A stretch of DNA of 64,000 nt from Lutibacter sp. (GCF_013139515.1 NZ_WTAR01000020.1:988-64987), one strand, 5' to 3'; positions 766 to 38,998 are shown, numbered from the stretch's first letter. Notes: generated from the letters alone by a model not told the origin. A program made the numbers and translations.

Positions 766-3027
766 TTATCCTTTAATTTGGTTTCGTTTAAATTGCTCAA
801 ACTTATTTTCTTTATTTTTTGGCCAGCTGTTGTTTGTTAAATCTACATCAGCAGTTTGTTCATCAGGATCTACAGTAATCTTTGAAATTGCTTTGCTTGA
901 TGGGAAGACTTTTGTTACTTCATTATCATTCAAACTCCAAATTTCAGCCGGATATTGCTTACGTTCTTTGGTGCCATCTTCGTATTCAAATTCAACAATA
1001 ATTGGCATTACTAAATCACCTGGTTTTTCAAAAACTAATTCATAAAAATATTTAGGAGCCTTTAACGTAGCTTTTTCTTCTGAAGTAAAGTTTTGTTCAA
1101 CATAATCGCTTAATAAATTGTAATCCTCAGGTTTTTTCTTTTTCAAATTTTTATTGAATTCTTTGCTGTCTTCAGAAACTAAATATAAAGAAGGTGGTAA
1201 TTGATCCACAGTAATTCCGTAAGCTTTTGCCATGTTTTTAGCACGTTCAGTTGGTTTATCTGTTACATAGAATTTTTTAACTTCTTTTATACCAATATCA
1301 GTATTTCCAGTAGTATAAAACCAACCTCTCCAAAACCAATCTAAATCCATTGCAGAAGCATCTTCCATAGTTCTAAAAAAATCTGCAGGAGTAGGATGTT
1401 TAAAAGCCCAGCGTTTTGAATACGTTTTAAAAGCGTAGTCAAATAGCTCAGGTCCCATAATGGTTTGTCTTAAAATATATAAAGCAGCAGCAGGTTTTGC
1501 ATAAGCATTTGATCCGAAATTTAAAACTGTACCACCTTGAGACATAATTGGGGAAAGTTTACTTTGATCTCCAGACATATATCTAGTAATATCTTTAGCG
1601 GTGCTTTTCATTGGGAATAATTCTGAATCGTATTTGTATTCAGCTAAAATTTCAATAAAAGAATTTAAACCTTCATCCATCCAAGTCCATTGACGTTCAT
1701 CTGAATTTACAATCATAGGAAAAAAGTTATGACCAACTTCATGCGTTACAACACCAATCATACCTTTTTTTGTTCTTTCAGAATATTTTCCATTTGTATT
1801 TGGCCTTCCATAATTCCAGCAAATCATAGGATATTCCATTCCTTGACGTTTTGCATTAACCGATGTTGCATGCGGATATGGATAATCAAATGTATGTTCT
1901 GAATAGATTTTTAAAGTATTAGCTACAACTCTTGTTGAATGTTCTTCCCAAAGCGGATTTCCCTCATTAGGATATAATGAATATGCCATTACAGTTTTAT
2001 CATTTAATTTAACAGCCATAGCGTCCCAAATTAATTTACGCGAACTTGCAAATGCAAAATCACGAACATTTTCAGCATATATTTTCCAAGTTTTTGTTTT
2101 ATTAGATTGCCCTTTTTCTGCTTCAAGTGCTTCTTCAGGAGTTACAATAAATACAGGATTATTATAAGAAGTGTTTGCTTCAACGTACCTTTTATATTGT
2201 TTGTTTGTAAATACATCTTTAGGGTTTTGAATTACACCAGTTCCATTTAAAATATGATCTTTAGGTGTTGTAATTGAAACTTCATAATTTCCAAATTCTA
2301 AAGCAAACTCACTTCGTCCCCAAAACTGCATATTCTGCCATCCTTCAACGTTATTATACACCGCTAAACGAGGGAAAAATTGAGCAATAATGTATAAGTT
2401 ATTTCCATCAGGAAATGGTTCGTAACCAGATCTACCTCTTATTGATGTGTAATCGTTAATATTATACCACCATTTTATATTGAATATAAATTTTTCACCT
2501 GAAGCTAAAGGTATAGTTAAATCAACACGCATCATAGTGTTGTTTATCATATAATGTAAGTCATTACCTGAAGCATCTGTAATATATTCAATATTAAAAC
2601 CTCCTTGAAAAGGTTTTCCCATAAATTGTTTTGTAAATTTTGAAGGAGAATATAAAGCATCTGGGCCACCACCTTTTATTTCGTTAGTTTTTGAATTTGG
2701 AGCACGCATATTTTGATCTAGTTGCACCCATAAATAGTCTAAATTATCTTTAGAATTATTGTGATATGTAATAGTTTCTTCACCAAAAAGTTTATTATTT
2801 TTTTCATCTAAAATAATGTTCATTCTATAATCAACTTGTTGCTGGGTGTATTCATAACCAGGAGCACCAGAAGCAGTGTGCTGTTTGTTTGGTGTTGGCA
2901 ACTTGTCTTTTAGCTGCTTAAATTTACTAGTATTGTAATGTGATTTTTGTCCTGGTTTTACTTCTTGGGCATAAAACGATGTTGATATGCATGCAATTGA
3001 AATTGCTAAAATGAATATTTTTTTCAT
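766..3027 (-). CDS. M1 family metallo-aminopeptidase, secreted
   Basis: GMEYP exopeptidase motif, HEVGH...E zinc motif (HEVGHNFFPMIVNSDERQWTWMDEG), signal peptide. Confidence 0.92.
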   Translation of the reverse strand: MKKIFILAISIACISTSFYAQEVKPGQKSHYNTSKFKQLKDKLPTPNKQHTASGAPGYEYTQQQVDYRMNIILDEKNNKLFGEETITYHNNSKDNLDYLWVQLDQNMRAPNSKTNEIKGGGPDALYSPSKFTKQFMGKPFQGGFNIEYITDASGNDLHYMINNTMMRVDLTIPLASGEKFIFNIKWWYNINDYTSIRGRSGYEPFPDGNNLYIIAQFFPRLAVYNNVEGWQNMQFWGRSEFALEFGNYEVSITTPKDHILNGTGVIQNPKDVFTNKQYKRYVEANTSYNNPVFIVTPEEALEAEKGQSNKTKTWKIYAENVRDFAFASSRKLIWDAMAVKLNDKTVMAYSLYPNEGNPLWEEHSTRVVANTLKIYSEHTFDYPYPHATSVNAKRQGMEYPMICWNYGRPNTNGKYSERTKKGMIGVVTHEVGHNFFPMIVNSDERQWTWMDEGLNSFIEILAEYKYDSELFPMKSTAKDITRYMSGDQSKLSPIMSQGGTVLNFGSNAYAKPAAALYILRQTIMGPELFDYAFKTYSKRWAFKHPTPADFFRTMEDASAMDLDWFWRGWFYTTGNTDIGIKEVKKFYVTDKPTERAKNMAKAYGITVDQLPPSLYLVSEDSKEFNKNLKKKKPEDYNLLSDYVEQNFTSEEKATLKAPKYFYELVFEKPGDLVMPIIVEFEYEDGTKERKQYPAEIWSLNDNEVTKVFPSSKAISKITVDPDEQTADVDLTNNSWPKNKENKFEQFKRNQIKG

Positions 3028-3092
3028 GGGTAGTTAATTTGTGAAAAATGTTTTGAAAATTAATTATTTTAAGTAAGATAAAGTGTAGTTGC

Positions 3093-3590
3093 TTAAAAAT
3101 TTAACAAACCTTTATCATTTTTAGCTGTTAAATAAAATGTTTTATGAATTTTGTTTGCTTTTATTTTAACAATATTTTGTTGATCTTTAAAATCTTTAAA
3201 AAGGAAATTATTAATAATTTCTATAGATTTTATTTTCTCAATATTGGTTATTTCTAAGTAAAAACGAACAATATCATCATCATATTCTTTTCCAATATAT
3301 ATATAAGGTTTTAAGCTATTATTTACTGTAATTTTAAAGTGTTTGTTTAGATATGATTGATAATATTCGTCAATATTTTCAACTTCTTGTTTTGTTGCTA
3401 GGTTAAGTGTTTTTTTATGATTTTTATTAAGTGTAAACTCAAGATCATCAATAAAAAGACCAACTGTTATCTGAAGCGTATTTTGTTCTTCATTATGTTC
3501 AATTTCACATAAACTTATGTAGTATTTGTGCATAGTAAATGCAACTAACGGAATAAAAAAAAGGATATATAAATATTTTCTAAGATTCAT
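3093..3590 (-). CDS. DUF6702-like conserved Bacteroidota protein
   Basis: HKYYISLCEI motif after a signal peptide; typical neighbour of M1 peptidases in flavobacteria. Confidence 0.65.
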   Translation of the reverse strand: MNLRKYLYILFFIPLVAFTMHKYYISLCEIEHNEEQNTLQITVGLFIDDLEFTLNKNHKKTLNLATKQEVENIDEYYQSYLNKHFKITVNNSLKPYIYIGKEYDDDIVRFYLEITNIEKIKSIEIINNFLFKDFKDQQNIVKIKANKIHKTFYLTAKNDKGLLNF

Positions 3591-32898: not shown

Positions 32899-34623
32899 CT
32901 ACAGTTGTGTTTCTTTAATAATACTATCGTATTCTTGAATAGCACTTTCCATGTCAAATTCAACATGTTGATTTTCATGTAGTGGAGATATTTTCAGCTT
33001 GAAATAATCTTCAAATTTAGCTATAGACGTTACTAGTGAATTTGGAGATGATTTTCCCAATCCACAACGACTGGAAAGTTGTATAATAGTTCCCCATTGT
33101 TTAATTTCATCAATATCATTTTGAGTACATAATCCACGCTCAAATTTTTTAATTTTCTCATATAAAATTTGATTTCCAGCTCTACAAGGTGTGCAAACAC
33201 CACAAGATTCTGTTTTGAAAAATTTCATAAAGTTTTTCTGAATTTGAAGAATACTGCGTGATCTATTAAAAATCATAATAGAACCACCACAAATAAGATC
33301 TTCTTTACAAATTTTTCGATCAAATTCAGAACTGTTGATACAGCTTCCTGAAGGACCGCTAATTTGGATATAATAAGGAGAAAGGCCTTCGCATAATTTC
33401 AATAAATCTCTAATAGTTGTTCCCCATTCAATTTCATAGATTCCAGGTTTTGCAACATCTCCCGAGATGCTTAATAATTTTGTTCCTTTACTTTTTTCTG
33501 TTCCAATAGCAGAAATAAAATTGCTTCCAAGCTCAATTATTCTAGCTGCTTTTGCAAAGGTTTCAACATTATTTACCACTGTTGAATATCCTAAATAACC
33601 AACTTCTGTTGGAAAAGACTTTTGAATACGAGGTTCTCCACGTTTGCCTTCTAAAGATTCAATGAGTGCTTTTTCTTCACCACAAACATAAGAACCTGCA
33701 CCTAATTGTATTTCAATATTAAAATTGAAATTATCAATACCAAGAATAGTTTTACCTAAGAACCCTTTTTTATGAAATTCTTGAAGTGTGCTTTCAAGTT
33801 TTTCTAGCAAATATGCGTACTCAGCTCGTAAGTAAATATAACCTTTTGTAGCACCAGTAATAAATGCGGCAATTATCATTCCTTCTAGAATCAATCCTGG
33901 ATTGTTTTCTAACAGTGCTCTATCTTTAAAAGTACCAGGTTCACCTTCATCTGCATTGCAAATAATGAACTTTTTTGTACTGTTACTTTCTTGGCAATAC
34001 TGCCATTTTTTTGCTGTTGGAAAAAAGGCGCCACCACGTCCAGCTAATTTGGCTTTTGAGATGAGGTTTAAAATTTTGTTAGCACTTGAGTTTTGTAATT
34101 TTTTTATTGAATTTCCTAGTATGTAGTTTCTAAAAAATACGGTTTTATCATCAGTAGGAGTATACTGAATTTTACTTGTAACAGTGCTTGAAATGGTGTT
34201 TAATTGAGTACCATTCTTTAATTGTTTAATAATTTTCACAACCTTCTTGGGTGTTAAATTGGTAAAAGGTTGAAAGTTGATTAAAGCGGCAGGTTCTTGA
34301 TCGCTCAATCCAATACAAGAAGTTTCAAAAAGAGTGAATAACGGATTTTCATTGTATGCACCAAAAGTACAACCTGTTTCTTTTTCAAACGCAGCTTTTA
34401 TTTGCTGAAACCCTTTGAATTCTGAGACAATACTGTTGTTTAAATAAATAATAAATTTACCAGTAGGCTGTTGGTGAAAGAAATGATAAAAAGTGACAAC
34501 TCCTTCAATTTCTGTAGTTGAAACTTTTAATGTTTTGGCTATTTCTTTAATTGCATTTTCTGAAATATAACCGTGCTTATTTTGAAATTCCCAAAGTTTG
34601 TTTAATAGGTCTGTTCTTTCCAT
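32899..34623 (-). CDS. hoxF: NAD(H)-dependent diaphorase flavoprotein subunit HoxF
   Basis: NuoE-like N-domain (TFYHFF, CIGLSDQEPA), GRGGAFFPT, CNADEGEPGTFKDR, GAGSYVCGEE, ESCGVCTPCR..C. Confidence 0.93.
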   Translation of the reverse strand: MERTDLLNKLWEFQNKHGYISENAIKEIAKTLKVSTTEIEGVVTFYHFFHQQPTGKFIIYLNNSIVSEFKGFQQIKAAFEKETGCTFGAYNENPLFTLFETSCIGLSDQEPAALINFQPFTNLTPKKVVKIIKQLKNGTQLNTISSTVTSKIQYTPTDDKTVFFRNYILGNSIKKLQNSSANKILNLISKAKLAGRGGAFFPTAKKWQYCQESNSTKKFIICNADEGEPGTFKDRALLENNPGLILEGMIIAAFITGATKGYIYLRAEYAYLLEKLESTLQEFHKKGFLGKTILGIDNFNFNIEIQLGAGSYVCGEEKALIESLEGKRGEPRIQKSFPTEVGYLGYSTVVNNVETFAKAARIIELGSNFISAIGTEKSKGTKLLSISGDVAKPGIYEIEWGTTIRDLLKLCEGLSPYYIQISGPSGSCINSSEFDRKICKEDLICGGSIMIFNRSRSILQIQKNFMKFFKTESCGVCTPCRAGNQILYEKIKKFERGLCTQNDIDEIKQWGTIIQLSSRCGLGKSSPNSLVTSIAKFEDYFKLKISPLHENQHVEFDMESAIQEYDSIIKETQL

Positions 34624-35815: not shown

Positions 35816-35848
35816 AAAAATCTCTGCAATTAATATGCAGAGATTTTT
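35816..35848. terminator. Bidirectional terminator between the DUF5020 gene and the TonB receptor
   Basis: AAAAATCTCTGCA-attaata-TGCAGAGATTTTT. Confidence 0.8.
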
Positions 35849-35879: not shown

Positions 35880-38087
35880 CTAAATTTTAAATTTTAGCCC
35901 TAAAATAATATTTCTTCCAATATTATTAATCTCATCTGCTTTTAAACGAGATAAATGTGAAATGTAACTTTTATCAAATACATTGGTAGCATTTAAATTG
36001 ATATCAAAAGTAGTTTTTCCTATTTTTAGCGTCCCTCCAAAACCAACATTCATTAAAGAATAACCATTAGAAGTAGTTTCAAATCCGCTTACATTATTTT
36101 GATTAAAAGTACTAGATAAATTTATAGAAGCAAAGCCATCAGTTAACCAATTTTGAATGTCAAATTCAGTTCTAATCGTATTGTTCCAATTATTTGCAGG
36201 AATTAAAGGTAAATAATCACCATTTTGTTTTTCTCCAGTAACAGTTTCAAAGCTACTTTCAAAATGCAACCAATCTAAAGGATGTGGATGAAAATGCACA
36301 CCAATTTCACCACCATATAAATTTGCGTTATTTTGAATATAACTATAAACTTCATTATTATCTAGTATTTCACCAGTAGGTGATGTATAAATATAATTGT
36401 TTATATGATTATAAAAACCATTTATAAAAAATTCAAAATGATTTGTGTAGTATTCTAAATTTACATCAGTTTGAACATTTTGTTCGGTTTTTAAATTGTT
36501 GTTTCCAATTTCGTATCTATTGGTTCCTTCATGAACTCCGTTTGAGCTTAACTCTGCCAAATTTGGTGCTCTAAATCCTGACGCAAAATTCATTCGTAAA
36601 ATTATGTCATCAGTTATATTGGTTTTATAACCTAAAGAAGCGTTAAAACTATTGTATGTTTTATCTATAGTTTCAAAAGAACCTTCTTCTCCAGTAACAC
36701 CATATTGTTCTGTTAAAATAGTTCTTTTGTCAAAACGTAAACCTGCTTGAAGTACATTCGTTTTCCATTCATAATTACCAGTACCAAAAATACCAACATC
36801 ATTTGTAATTGCATTTGGAATTAAATATTCTTCACCAAAATTTTTATTAGTTTGATGCATTCCTTGAATTCCAACAATGGATTCAATGTTACCAAATTTT
36901 TGAAAATGATATTTTGCATTGTAATTAAAGGTGTTTAATTTCATATGTAATACCGCAATTTCGCTATCTTCAAATTCACTTCTGTCATTAGCAATATAAC
37001 CAAGATCTATAGCTAGTTTTGAATTTTGAAAAAAGTAAATATTGTTTAAACTCAATAAATTATTGAAAACTGATTGTTTTGGGTAGGTGGTTTTTTTATT
37101 GGTAGTTTGTTCTGCAACTCCTTCTTCAGGAATTCCTAAATCTAATTTATTATAATTATATCTTAAAACACTTGAAATTTTAGAATTTTGATACCCAATT
37201 CCTGTTTTAAAGTCGGTTTCATTATAACGTGTATTTGTTACGCTATTTCCGTTTGAAACCTTATAATCTGAATGTGTATTATAACTTCCTCTACCAATAA
37301 ATTTCCAATTTTCAGAAGAAGTTTTTATGCTTAATGAAGAATTACTTCCCAAGGTATTTGAAAATAATTTTTGTTCAAAATTGGAGGATAAAGTATTGGC
37401 TTCTGCAAATTTTTCTGGATTGAAATATAAAACTCCACCCAAAGCATCTGAGCCATAAAGTAATGAGGCTGGGCCTTTTATAACTTCTACACTTGCTACT
37501 CCAGCATCATTTAAACCTAAACCATGTTCATCTCCAAACTGTTGATTTTCAATACGAACACCTTGTGAATAAACCAAAACACGATTACCGCTTAAACCTC
37601 TAATTACAGGTTTTCCAATAGACGTTCCCGTTGAAACTTGTGAAACGCCAGGAATTGTTGCCAAACCCTCAATTAAAGTTGAAGTTCCTTTTTGTTGTAA
37701 TGATTTGATGCTTTCATAATCAACTTTCATTACGTTTTGCGATTGTAATTTATTGAAGGCGGTTGAAACAATTATTTCATCCATTTTAAAAACAGCTTCT
37801 TCTAAACTAAAGTTTAGTGTTGTTTTTTTATTTTGAAGACTAATAATTTTAGTCTCAGTTGCGTATCCTATAAAAGCTATGGTTATTTTAATAGGTGTAT
37901 TTGGTAAATTTTGTAGTTGGTATAATCCTTCTTCATTTGTTGAAGTTCCTTTATGAAGATCTTCAATGTAAACTTCTACACCAAATAATGGGTTGTTTTT
38001 TAGGTCTGTTATTTTTCCTGATATTATATTTTGAGAATAGGAAATAAAAGAAAAACCAATAAATAATATTGATAGGTATAATTTCAT
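35880..38087 (-). CDS. TonB-dependent receptor, probable metal (Zn/Ni/Co/Cu) uptake
   Basis: Signal peptide, carboxypeptidase-like N-domain, plug IRGL..NRVL, EVIKGPASLLYGSDALGGV, GFRAPNLAEL, His-bearing motifs GDEHG, VHEG, HFHPHP; substrate is inference. Confidence 0.9.
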   Translation of the reverse strand: MKLYLSILFIGFSFISYSQNIISGKITDLKNNPLFGVEVYIEDLHKGTSTNEEGLYQLQNLPNTPIKITIAFIGYATETKIISLQNKKTTLNFSLEEAVFKMDEIIVSTAFNKLQSQNVMKVDYESIKSLQQKGTSTLIEGLATIPGVSQVSTGTSIGKPVIRGLSGNRVLVYSQGVRIENQQFGDEHGLGLNDAGVASVEVIKGPASLLYGSDALGGVLYFNPEKFAEANTLSSNFEQKLFSNTLGSNSSLSIKTSSENWKFIGRGSYNTHSDYKVSNGNSVTNTRYNETDFKTGIGYQNSKISSVLRYNYNKLDLGIPEEGVAEQTTNKKTTYPKQSVFNNLLSLNNIYFFQNSKLAIDLGYIANDRSEFEDSEIAVLHMKLNTFNYNAKYHFQKFGNIESIVGIQGMHQTNKNFGEEYLIPNAITNDVGIFGTGNYEWKTNVLQAGLRFDKRTILTEQYGVTGEEGSFETIDKTYNSFNASLGYKTNITDDIILRMNFASGFRAPNLAELSSNGVHEGTNRYEIGNNNLKTEQNVQTDVNLEYYTNHFEFFINGFYNHINNYIYTSPTGEILDNNEVYSYIQNNANLYGGEIGVHFHPHPLDWLHFESSFETVTGEKQNGDYLPLIPANNWNNTIRTEFDIQNWLTDGFASINLSSTFNQNNVSGFETTSNGYSLMNVGFGGTLKIGKTTFDINLNATNVFDKSYISHLSRLKADEINNIGRNIILGLKFKI

Positions 38088-38126
38088 TTTAATGTGTTTA
38101 TTGTTAATGAGTTTTTGAATAAATAG

Positions 38127-38462
38127 TTATATAAACAATAAAACAGGAGGTGCTCTAGATGATTTAAAATGAAGATTTAAAGAAGTTATTTGATTTTTTG
38201 TAGGATATATTTTTTCTTCAACTATGGTAGTTGAAGCTGATGGAATGCTTGAATAAAAATCAATAGAATTAGTATCTATTTTAAAATGTAAAACAGAACA
38301 GTCAATTTCATGAGTGTCAAAATGAGTTTTATTTTGCTCATGACAAATTGAATGTTCATGCGTTGTAAATGAGTGTACAAATTGTACACCAAAAGGAAGC
38401 AATACAACTGCAATTAAAACAATTGAAATAAATTGACTAATATGTAGCTTAATTTTTGACAT
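38127..38462 (-). CDS. His/Cys-rich small membrane or exported protein with C-terminal RAPP motif (candidate arrest-peptide leader)
   Basis: Hydrophobic aa 9-29; HSFTTHEHSICHEQNKTHFDTHEIDCSVLH; RAPP at aa 103-106 (nt 38145-38156, AGA GCA CCT CCT); ends 39 nt before the receptor ATG. Confidence 0.8.
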   Translation of the reverse strand: MSKIKLHISQFISIVLIAVVLLPFGVQFVHSFTTHEHSICHEQNKTHFDTHEIDCSVLHFKIDTNSIDFYSSIPSASTTIVEEKIYPTKNQITSLNLHFKSSRAPPVLLFI

Positions 38463-38492
38463 ATATTAAGCTGTAAAATTACAAAAATTAAC

Positions 38493-38681
38493 TTAATCTT
38501 TAACACCTAATTTTCCCAAAATAACTTCAAGTAAACACCATTTAGTAATGGATGATTGTAATAAATTTGCTCCTACAAAAGCAGTTACCCATAACCAATT
38601 TAAGTTGTTCAATTTTATAGCTAATAATAAGCTAATTAGTATAAATGTTCCTGCAAATGCTCTAATTATTCGTTGTTTCAT
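38493..38681 (-). CDS. DUF2892 (YgaP-like TM domain) protein
   Basis: RIIRAFAG, FVGANLLQS, WC motif; 2 TM. Confidence 0.85.
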   Translation of the reverse strand: MKQRIIRAFAGTFILISLLLAIKLNNLNWLWVTAFVGANLLQSSITKWCLLEVILGKLGVKD

Positions 38682-38692
38682 ATTCTTAATTT

Positions 38693-38998
38693 TTAATTTG
38701 ATTTTTCAATATTTAGCAGAACAACATGTACCTTTGATGATGTTCTTTGTTTTTCATTAAATTCAGTAACTGCACTAAATAAATTATCTGCATTTTCTTT
38801 TTTAACGAAAGCATAAAATAGAATAGATTGGCTTTCGTTCATTTCACTAGCAAACCAATTGTCGCCAACAGATTCTTCTGTTCTATCTCTATACCCTTTT
38901 ACATTGGTATATGTAAAACATGGTATTGATGATTTTTTTAACAAAAATTTTATATCGTTCTCAAATGCTTCAATAGCTGTAATCATTAGTAATTTCAT
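38693..38998 (-). CDS. PII-like protein
   Basis: 101 aa, MKLLMIT...I..FTYTNVKGY pattern of PII-fold proteins found after Bacteroidota RND genes. Confidence 0.55.
   Translation of the reverse strand: MKLLMITAIEAFENDIKFLLKKSSIPCFTYTNVKGYRDRTEESVGDNWFASEMNESQSILFYAFVKKENADNLFSAVTEFNEKQRTSSKVHVVLLNIEKSN

Follow-up and report, generated by a model that had tools for sequence, protein, structure and literature searches.

The prototype of the Pfam family DUF2946, CruR (Bp2923) of Bordetella pertussis, is a RAPP-containing leader encoded before a TonB receptor (PMC9426467), and its arrest and toeprint have been reported (PMC12992588). In CruR a CXXC motif lies 45 residues from RAPP and this spacing is functionally required; the stall keeps the operon on, copper relieves the stall, and Rho-dependent termination operates over a gap of 162 nt (PMC9426467). 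A second copper system is that of Rhodobacter capsulatus, where CutF is exported co-translationally and senses periplasmic copper, and where its stall has been shown experimentally to unfold a stem-loop hiding the SD of cutO (PMC9973294). Öztürk et al. 2023 defined CutF-like proteins as those of fewer than 150 aa that carry an export signal at the N-terminus, have PP among their last 15 residues and are encoded before a same-strand gene no more than 1000 nt away, and counted 5,334 of them, 19%-40% from Bacteroidota, with TonB-like genes as frequent neighbours (PMC9973294). Fujiwara et al. 2025 showed that RAPP and RGPP are versatile, EF-P-refractory arrest cores, and found 5450 RAPP and 4450 RGPP small ORFs before genes annotated 'TonB-dependent receptor' (PMC12992588). 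In the portion of that catalogue considered here, GRFL_RS15525 of Gramella flava (RGPP, 33-nt gap; PMC12992588) carries, by eye, the motif pattern of the leader family described below, and no F. johnsoniae entry was found among the table rows examined.

The window analysed here, a stretch of 64,000 nucleotides from Lutibacter sp. (GCF_013139515.1 NZ_WTAR01000020.1:988-64987), contains on its minus strand a small ORF immediately before a TonB-dependent receptor gene. The span first singled out, 38088-38462, consists of this ORF and the 39-nt gap behind it. The features are as follows.

38474-38490, minus: candidate Bacteroidota -7 promoter elements, near-matches to TAnnTTTG read from the sequence
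38127-38462, minus: leader ORF (uORF), 111 aa, ATG start, TAA stop
38364-38444, minus: hydrophobic N-terminal helix, predicted signal anchor, about residues 7-33 (AlphaFold2 helix 3-33)
38286-38375, minus: His/Cys cluster, presumed metal sensor, residues 30-59, recognised by conservation
38157-38285, minus: linker or 'ruler', residues 60-102 (43 aa), sequence free and length fixed
38145-38156, minus: RAPP codons AGA GCA CCT CCT, residues 103-106, predicted arrest site
38127-38144, minus: tail codons VLLFI and stop; the tail is 3-5 residues long in 158/172 relatives
38134-38143, minus: 5' arm of the predicted anti-initiation helix, +8 to +17 from the first base of the P-site Pro codon
38088-38126, minus: intergenic region of 39 nt, helix loop and receptor initiation region, no terminator
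38096-38105, minus: 3' arm of the predicted anti-initiation helix, -18 to -9 of the receptor AUG, covering the A-rich -12 to -15
35880-38087, minus: TonB-dependent receptor, 735 aa, heme/ZnuD-like clade, with CarbopepD_reg_2, Plug and barrel domains
35816-35848, minus: terminator-like hairpin with a T run, end of the leader-receptor unit

The original prediction had described this arrangement correctly in every detail: a TM segment, seven His (H30, H35, H37, H41, H47, H51 and H59), two Cys (C40 and C55, the latter within C55-S-V-L-H59), the 43-aa linker, RAPP followed by five nonpolar residues (VLLFI) and TAA, and a receptor whose ATG at 38087 lies 39 nt past the leader stop. It was also right that no terminator hairpin separates the two genes, as no terminator-like site was found between them, the sole one on this strand being that at 35848-35816, past the receptor. 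An Rfam search of the locus gave nothing relevant, a MicA match at E 0.69 being noise.

Compared with CruR, the leader is likewise a small exported or anchored product heading a TonB-dependent receptor unit. In both, the metal-ligand motif keeps a constant distance to the arrest motif (45 aa in CruR and 47 in the leader, the latter within about 45 aa +/-2), the C-terminal RAPP has 3-5 nonpolar residues between it and the stop, and the protein is poorly structured. They would also be expected to share their logic, the stall turning the receptor on and the metal turning it off. The sensor differs, being His-rich here (HxxxxHxHxxC...HxH....DC) and without CxxC in this ORF, and so does the gap, 162 nt in CruR versus 39 nt here, so that the long structured intergenic region of CruR has no counterpart. 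The helix at the leader predicts translational control, unlike the Rho-dependent control of CruR; the metal is copper in CruR, with zinc the likeliest candidate here; and the host belongs to a phylum without SD. A CxxC at the position of C55 is present in about 30% of the wider family (36/122 with Cys at 58), and in a paralogue from the same genome (CPIC). The DUF2946 (PF11162) HMM did not match the ORF at E<=1 or any of 117 family members at E<=0.1, and it had 0 matches in the leader's own genome and in 61 same-family genomes, whereas control genomes did match. The leader is thus a counterpart of CruR and not a member of its family, which bears out the idea of a His-based Bacteroidota counterpart from which this work started.

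The leader also falls within the CutF-like definition, having 111 aa, a predicted TM helix at 3-33, PP at 105-106 and a 39-nt gap. By computation, it has a start-shielding stem-loop of the CutF type that a stalled ribosome would open, masking in this case an A-rich, SD-less region. Unfolding by a stalled leader ribosome of a stem-loop over the start of the next gene is therefore common to CutF and to our proposal; only CutF controls a multicopper oxidase, has its stall enhanced by copper (metal turning expression on), hides an SD within the stem-loop and uses a CxxxC sensor. As in the described RAPP/RGPP arrest peptides (PMC7897499, PMC10951233, PMC12992588), the core stands close to the C-terminal end of a small membrane protein whose ORF precedes the presumed target gene. 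The Fujiwara catalogue (PMC12992588) covers the same class, but by motif only, and contains no description of the family or of its His/Cys pattern, 47-aa ruler and RNA helix. Arrest near the C-terminus, a masking structure that is melted by the stalled ribosome and release by pulling force are features that the proposed leader has in common with SecM, MifM, VemP, ApdA and ApdP, but these monitor secretion or insertion activity, and their targets are Sec or YidC genes.

Taken together, the sequence makes it probable that the ORF is a cis-acting RAPP/RGPP ribosome-arrest leader of the CruR/CutF kind, controlling translation of the receptor. Read in this way, the locus is the target of CruR joined to the mechanism of CutF, in a different sequence family and in an SD-less phylum. 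Its novelty is modest, and the original prediction rated it too highly, since leaders before TonB receptors, Bacteroidota included, had already been catalogued in bulk (PMC9973294, PMC12992588). What is new is an unnamed leader family, most likely a well-supported member of a class of metal-controlled translational switch known from proteobacteria and not a new principle.

The leader family and its ruler

A word-based search returned 31 close relatives in Lutibacter and other Flavobacteriaceae; the approximately 32 close sequences share H30, H35, H51, C55, H59 and SRAPP without exception and vary in the linker. An exhaustive HMMER search extended the family to 211 cluster representatives, mostly of 105-112 aa. 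The arrest motif of 172 relatives is RAPP in 109, RGPP in 60 and RSPP in 3, with R, P and P invariant and A or G nearly always at position 2, and in about 170 relatives, some as little as 25% identical, R[AG]PP is almost always found 2-9 residues before the end of the protein. Synonymous variation in the codons for Arg, Ala/Gly and Pro indicates that the motif is under selection as peptide. In a broad alignment (A2) of 117-122 distant members, with a mean column identity of 28%, C55, R103, P105 and P106 are invariant, P23 is kept in 121/122, and H30, H35, C40, H47 and a His at position 49 are at least 90% conserved, while no column of linker residues 63-99 rises above about 30% identity. The spacer from C55 to R103 measures 47 aa in 151/172 relatives and 48 aa in 15/172 (44 when counted from position 58 instead of C55). 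With its sequence free and its length fixed, the linker is a ruler and not a domain. The original prediction had proposed this comparison as a check, and its expectation was borne out: the His/Cys residues and RAPP/RGPP are kept at a constant spacing and the linker sequence diverges. The family offers a clean natural experiment on the sensor-to-arrest ruler, 47 residues here versus 45 in CruR.

Bacteroidota proteomes are depleted in RAPP and RGPP, to 0.14 and 0.17 of expectation (PMC12992588). In this genome (2.83 Mb, G+C 29.7%), a search of every open frame of 80 aa or more, 1.03 million residues altogether, found R[AG]PP just twice, and both occurrences are 5 residues before the stop of leaders of about 111 codons located upstream of TonB receptors. 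A chance ORF is excluded by the conservation together with these motif statistics. The second leader, on contig C152 (3499-3834 minus, receptor 1192-3411), has 111 codons, a TTG start, CPIC, RAPP 5 residues from the stop and a gap of 87 nt. No Pfam or NCBIfam model covers the family in HMM searches of the ORF and its members; the weak NCBIfam matches are to LIC10965_fam in 10 members (best E 9e-4) and to the CzcI family in 4 (best E 0.004). The family profile matches 61/401 sampled Bacteroidota genomes and, in the window's own taxonomic family, 25/28 sampled genomes, with up to four copies per genome.

The N-terminus of the leader is basic (MSKIK), MSKIKLHI being kept in close relatives with an ATG start, and the linker is rich in Ser, Thr, Ile and Asn. 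AlphaFold2, run with a close alignment (A1), gives helix 3-33 as the sole confident element, with pLDDT <50 throughout beyond residue 35. The positive-inside rule is the basis for predicting membrane orientation; as lysines precede the TM helix and acidic residues come after it, the anchor is predicted to be N-in/C-out, which would place the His/Cys cluster in the periplasm.

The leader tail and the receptor start

In Flavobacterium, initiation proceeds without SD pairing and is tuned by the secondary structure of the TIR and by adenines at -3, -6, -12 and -13 (PMC6847099). Folding of the locus pairs the codons right after RAPP and the stop codon with the stretch just upstream of, or including, the receptor AUG. 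A further helix, specific to the window, pairs codons 97-100, just before RAPP, with the receptor AUG itself. According to toeprints, the two Pro residues of the motif are decoded in the P and A sites (PMC12992588), and with Pro105 and Pro106 so placed the mRNA channel of a stalled ribosome would enclose almost all of the 5' arm. In 29 loci, parking a ribosome at RAPP in silico lowers the mean opening energy of the receptor start (-12 to +14) from 7.35 to 5.22 kcal/mol, the value for a control ribosome parked 30 nt upstream being 7.12 kcal/mol. In 22/24 loci the start is masked more strongly by the native covered segment than by shuffles of matched composition (mean z 3.7). Duplexes between tail and start average -8.3 kcal/mol for cognate pairs versus -4.5 kcal/mol for non-cognate pairs (permutation p <= 5e-5), and as the latter come from the same family they control for generic U-rich/A-rich complementarity. 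The second module of the genome has the same design, its tail UUAGUUUC pairing with GAAACUAA at the receptor AUG.

Across 33 Lutibacter-group sequences the 10-bp helix is 91% paired, versus 43-63% when slid, and it shows A-U to U-A exchanges with a covariation score above all 500 shuffles, although these statistics and those of conservation given above are overstated because the relatives are not phylogenetically independent. With 8-10 base pairs, most of them A-U, the conserved helix has a weak consensus energy, about -2 kcal/mol, and its effect in vivo could be small; the fold of the window alone gains modestly at most over shuffles, with z -2.5 for 141 nt and -0.2 for 101 nt. An intrinsic terminator or attenuator was rejected, there being no U run after the helix. 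On the evidence of sequence and folding, the covarying helix is a concrete route by which a stall would act on receptor expression.

The switch that we propose would operate as follows. A ribosome translating the leader would arrest with Pro105 and Pro106 occupying the P and A sites, respectively, and would then cover the tail codons that otherwise pair with the A-rich region 9-18 nt before the receptor AUG, so that during a long stall the SD-less initiation region would stay open and the receptor would be made. The His/Cys cluster, held 47 residues from the arrest motif, would be just out of the exit tunnel or, with the anchor inserted, just past the Sec channel in the periplasm. About 50 residues separate C55 from the peptidyl-transferase centre at the predicted arrest, a distance at which it would just have cleared the tunnel or, with an inserted anchor, have reached the periplasmic mouth of SecY. 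Binding of a metal, most likely zinc, would compact the cluster, pull on the chain and end the stall; the ribosome would terminate, the helix would re-form and receptor synthesis would drop. What the sequences show is that motif, ligands, ruler and gene order are conserved and that a covarying helix lies where a stalled ribosome would cover its 5' arm; we infer that Bacteroidota ribosomes arrest here, in which direction the metal acts, which metal it is and in which compartment it is sensed. Release by membrane pulling through TM insertion, also raised by the original prediction, is unlikely as the TM segment ends 76 residues from the stall site. If confirmed, the switch would extend arrest-based metal sensing to a phylum whose ribosomes ignore Shine-Dalgarno sequences, working there by hiding A-rich upstream initiation determinants, and it would provide a post-transcriptional control, with zinc as its probable link, of outer-membrane receptors that marine and gut Bacteroidota have in abundance.

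The same leader and stall could have a transcriptional output, which we consider unlikely: the stalled ribosome would block Rho at a rut site in the leader mRNA and, once the stall was relieved, Rho would terminate before or inside the receptor gene. A contribution of Rho alongside the translational mechanism is nevertheless plausible. CruR works in such a way, and the leader mRNA (38088-38462, minus) resembles the rut region described in cruR in being C-rich and G-poor, with C 16.5% vs G 8.8% overall and C 19% vs G 5-8% in its 3' half; the adjoining genes have the opposite bias, G > C, and Lutibacter leaders average C 17% vs G 11%. This composition may however just reflect the Ser/Thr/Ile/Asn/Lys content of the linker. 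The gap between leader and receptor is 29-60 nt in most loci vs 162 nt in cruR, CruR-type leaders being generally long-gapped, and in a pure Rho model the covarying helix between tail and start would have no role.

A stable product of the ORF, acting as a small inner-membrane metal-binding chaperone or partner, would explain the conserved TM helix and His/Cys ligands, and would make RAPP a structural or interaction element and the helix a means of ordinary coupling. Any ribosome reaching the leader stop melts the helix, and plain translational coupling would use the same structure. We nevertheless regard this reading as very unlikely, given a linker whose sequence is free yet whose length is fixed, the low pLDDT of everything after residue 35, and a motif that is restricted to the known arresters RAPP and RGPP, is always a few residues from the stop and is otherwise absent, as R[AG]PP, from the open frames of at least 80 aa in the genome. 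That the leader monitors membrane insertion or secretion (Sec/YidC/SRP) and not metal, as SecM, MifM and ApdP do, is suggested by the combination of a signal anchor at the N-terminus with RAPP, which the ApdA/ApdP class also has (PMC7897499, PMC10987492), but is highly improbable, since the downstream gene is a receptor (or zigA) and not a Sec/YidC component, the invariant residues are metal ligands, and the TM segment, so far ahead of the stall site, would be inserted long before arrest.

Receptor, neighbouring genes and the sensed metal

The pairing of the two genes counts in favour of our preferred reading, an arrest leader controlling receptor translation. The leader is present in 42/43 named Lutibacter-group loci, with a receptor of 726-765 aa next to it wherever the contig allows. 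Among 30 diverse loci, the next gene is a homologue of the window's receptor in 25, after gaps of 39-279 nt; in three it is an ABC ATPase followed by a receptor-like gene, in one, a distant member (L036), it is zigA after 301 nt in place of the receptor, and in one it encodes an unknown secreted protein. The zigA product, a zinc metallochaperone GTPase, scores 605 bits against an NCBIfam cut-off of 600. In the loci with an ABC-type ATPase (L022, L023, L025) the gaps are of about 130-260 nt. Upstream of the leader, the neighbours vary from a DUF2892 gene behind an RND pump to a Zn/Cd-type P-type ATPase with a Fur-family gene, TerC, DUF6787 or DUF808, which indicates that the conserved unit is the leader plus the receptor; the pairing put forward in the original prediction thus holds while the upstream genes change.

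In the window, the leader is preceded on its own strand by a DUF2892/YgaP-like TM gene at a distance of 30 nt, a P-II-like gene, and an RND pump with its adaptor. The P-II-like/PG0541-type gene (101 aa) and the DUF2892/YgaP-like gene (62 aa) occupy 38493-38998 (minus), and this pair is conserved behind the RND pump and adaptor in Lutibacter-group genomes (L001-L004). On the other side, a gene for a HoxF-like NAD-reducing hydrogenase subunit lies at 32899-34623 (minus), past the terminator of the receptor at a distance of about 1.3 kb; a DUF5020 gene on the opposite strand stands between it and the receptor unit. A functional link to this nearby hox hydrogenase operon was rejected, as the adjacency is not conserved in relatives. 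In the second module of the genome, the receptor is followed by a Tll0287-like/cytochrome c gene.

The best solved relative of the receptor is ZnuD (4rdr, E 1.7e-20), and the receptor has partial matches to ZnuD/heme-clade HMMs. Its HxHxH...H motif, at residues 598-608, is kept in 43/44 orthologues and paralogues, and His188, His272, His519 and His711 are invariant; His519 comes after a FRAP-type box, as in heme/ZnuD-clade receptors. Judged from sequence, zinc is the best guess for the sensed metal, at somewhat short of an even chance, because ZnuD is the closest solved receptor, zigA stands behind one member of the family, a Zn/Cd-class ATPase and a Fur-family gene are beside another, and the set of His/Cys ligands is typical of zinc. 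Against a firm call, the RND pump scores better as a multidrug type than as the CzcA type, for which reason a 'Czc' assignment was rejected, and the receptor clade also holds heme receptors. Copper, nickel/cobalt, manganese (in view of the TerC neighbours) or heme may be sensed instead. The full reading, in which this unnamed family is a zinc-responsive nascent-chain sensor of periplasmic metal, reading it with a membrane-anchored His/Cys cluster, that unmasks SD-less, A-rich starts of ZnuD-like receptors and is itself started at AUU in most Lutibacter, is possible, yet doubtful as a whole. If true, Bacteroidota would gain their first characterised arrest-peptide switch, which would also be the first that responds to zinc.

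Promoters and start codons of the leaders

The candidate -7 elements of the window fall inside the 30-nt gap behind the upstream DUF2892 gene, whose stop codon overlaps the candidate box, and a TAATTTTG box at the equivalent place is conserved across Lutibacter loci. This suggests a promoter belonging to the leader in the 30-nt gap, as a candidate only. A scan for sigma-70 promoters gave matches at chance level, the sigma-70 consensus being uninformative for Bacteroidota. A perfect TAAATTTG -7 box is present 30 nt upstream of the second leader of the genome. In seven other loci (L024, L026, L028, L029 and L034, together with L008 and L016) the TAnnTTTG box ends 4-6 nt 5' of the leader ATG, so that the leader mRNAs there would be leaderless or nearly so; in these same loci, terminator-like hairpins of the preceding gene stand just upstream of the leader. 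In L010-L018 a DUF6787 membrane-protein gene ends at or overlaps the leader start (TAG/TGA over GTG), an overlap that suggests translational coupling into the leader.

Most Lutibacter leaders (L039-L080) have no ATG, GTG or TTG ahead of the TM segment. They have a conserved ATT, sometimes ATA, followed by AAA, about 20 codons before an LLPF motif, with an in-frame stop 1-4 codons 5' of the ATT. This pattern suggests that most Lutibacter leaders start at AUU; the counterpart of the ATT position in the window is the ATG region 38451-38462. Genome annotation misses or truncates such leaders, many of which are called from an internal TTG or have no canonical start. In Lutibacter, gene callers place the start at the internal TTG, giving models of 91-95 aa with a truncated TM helix.
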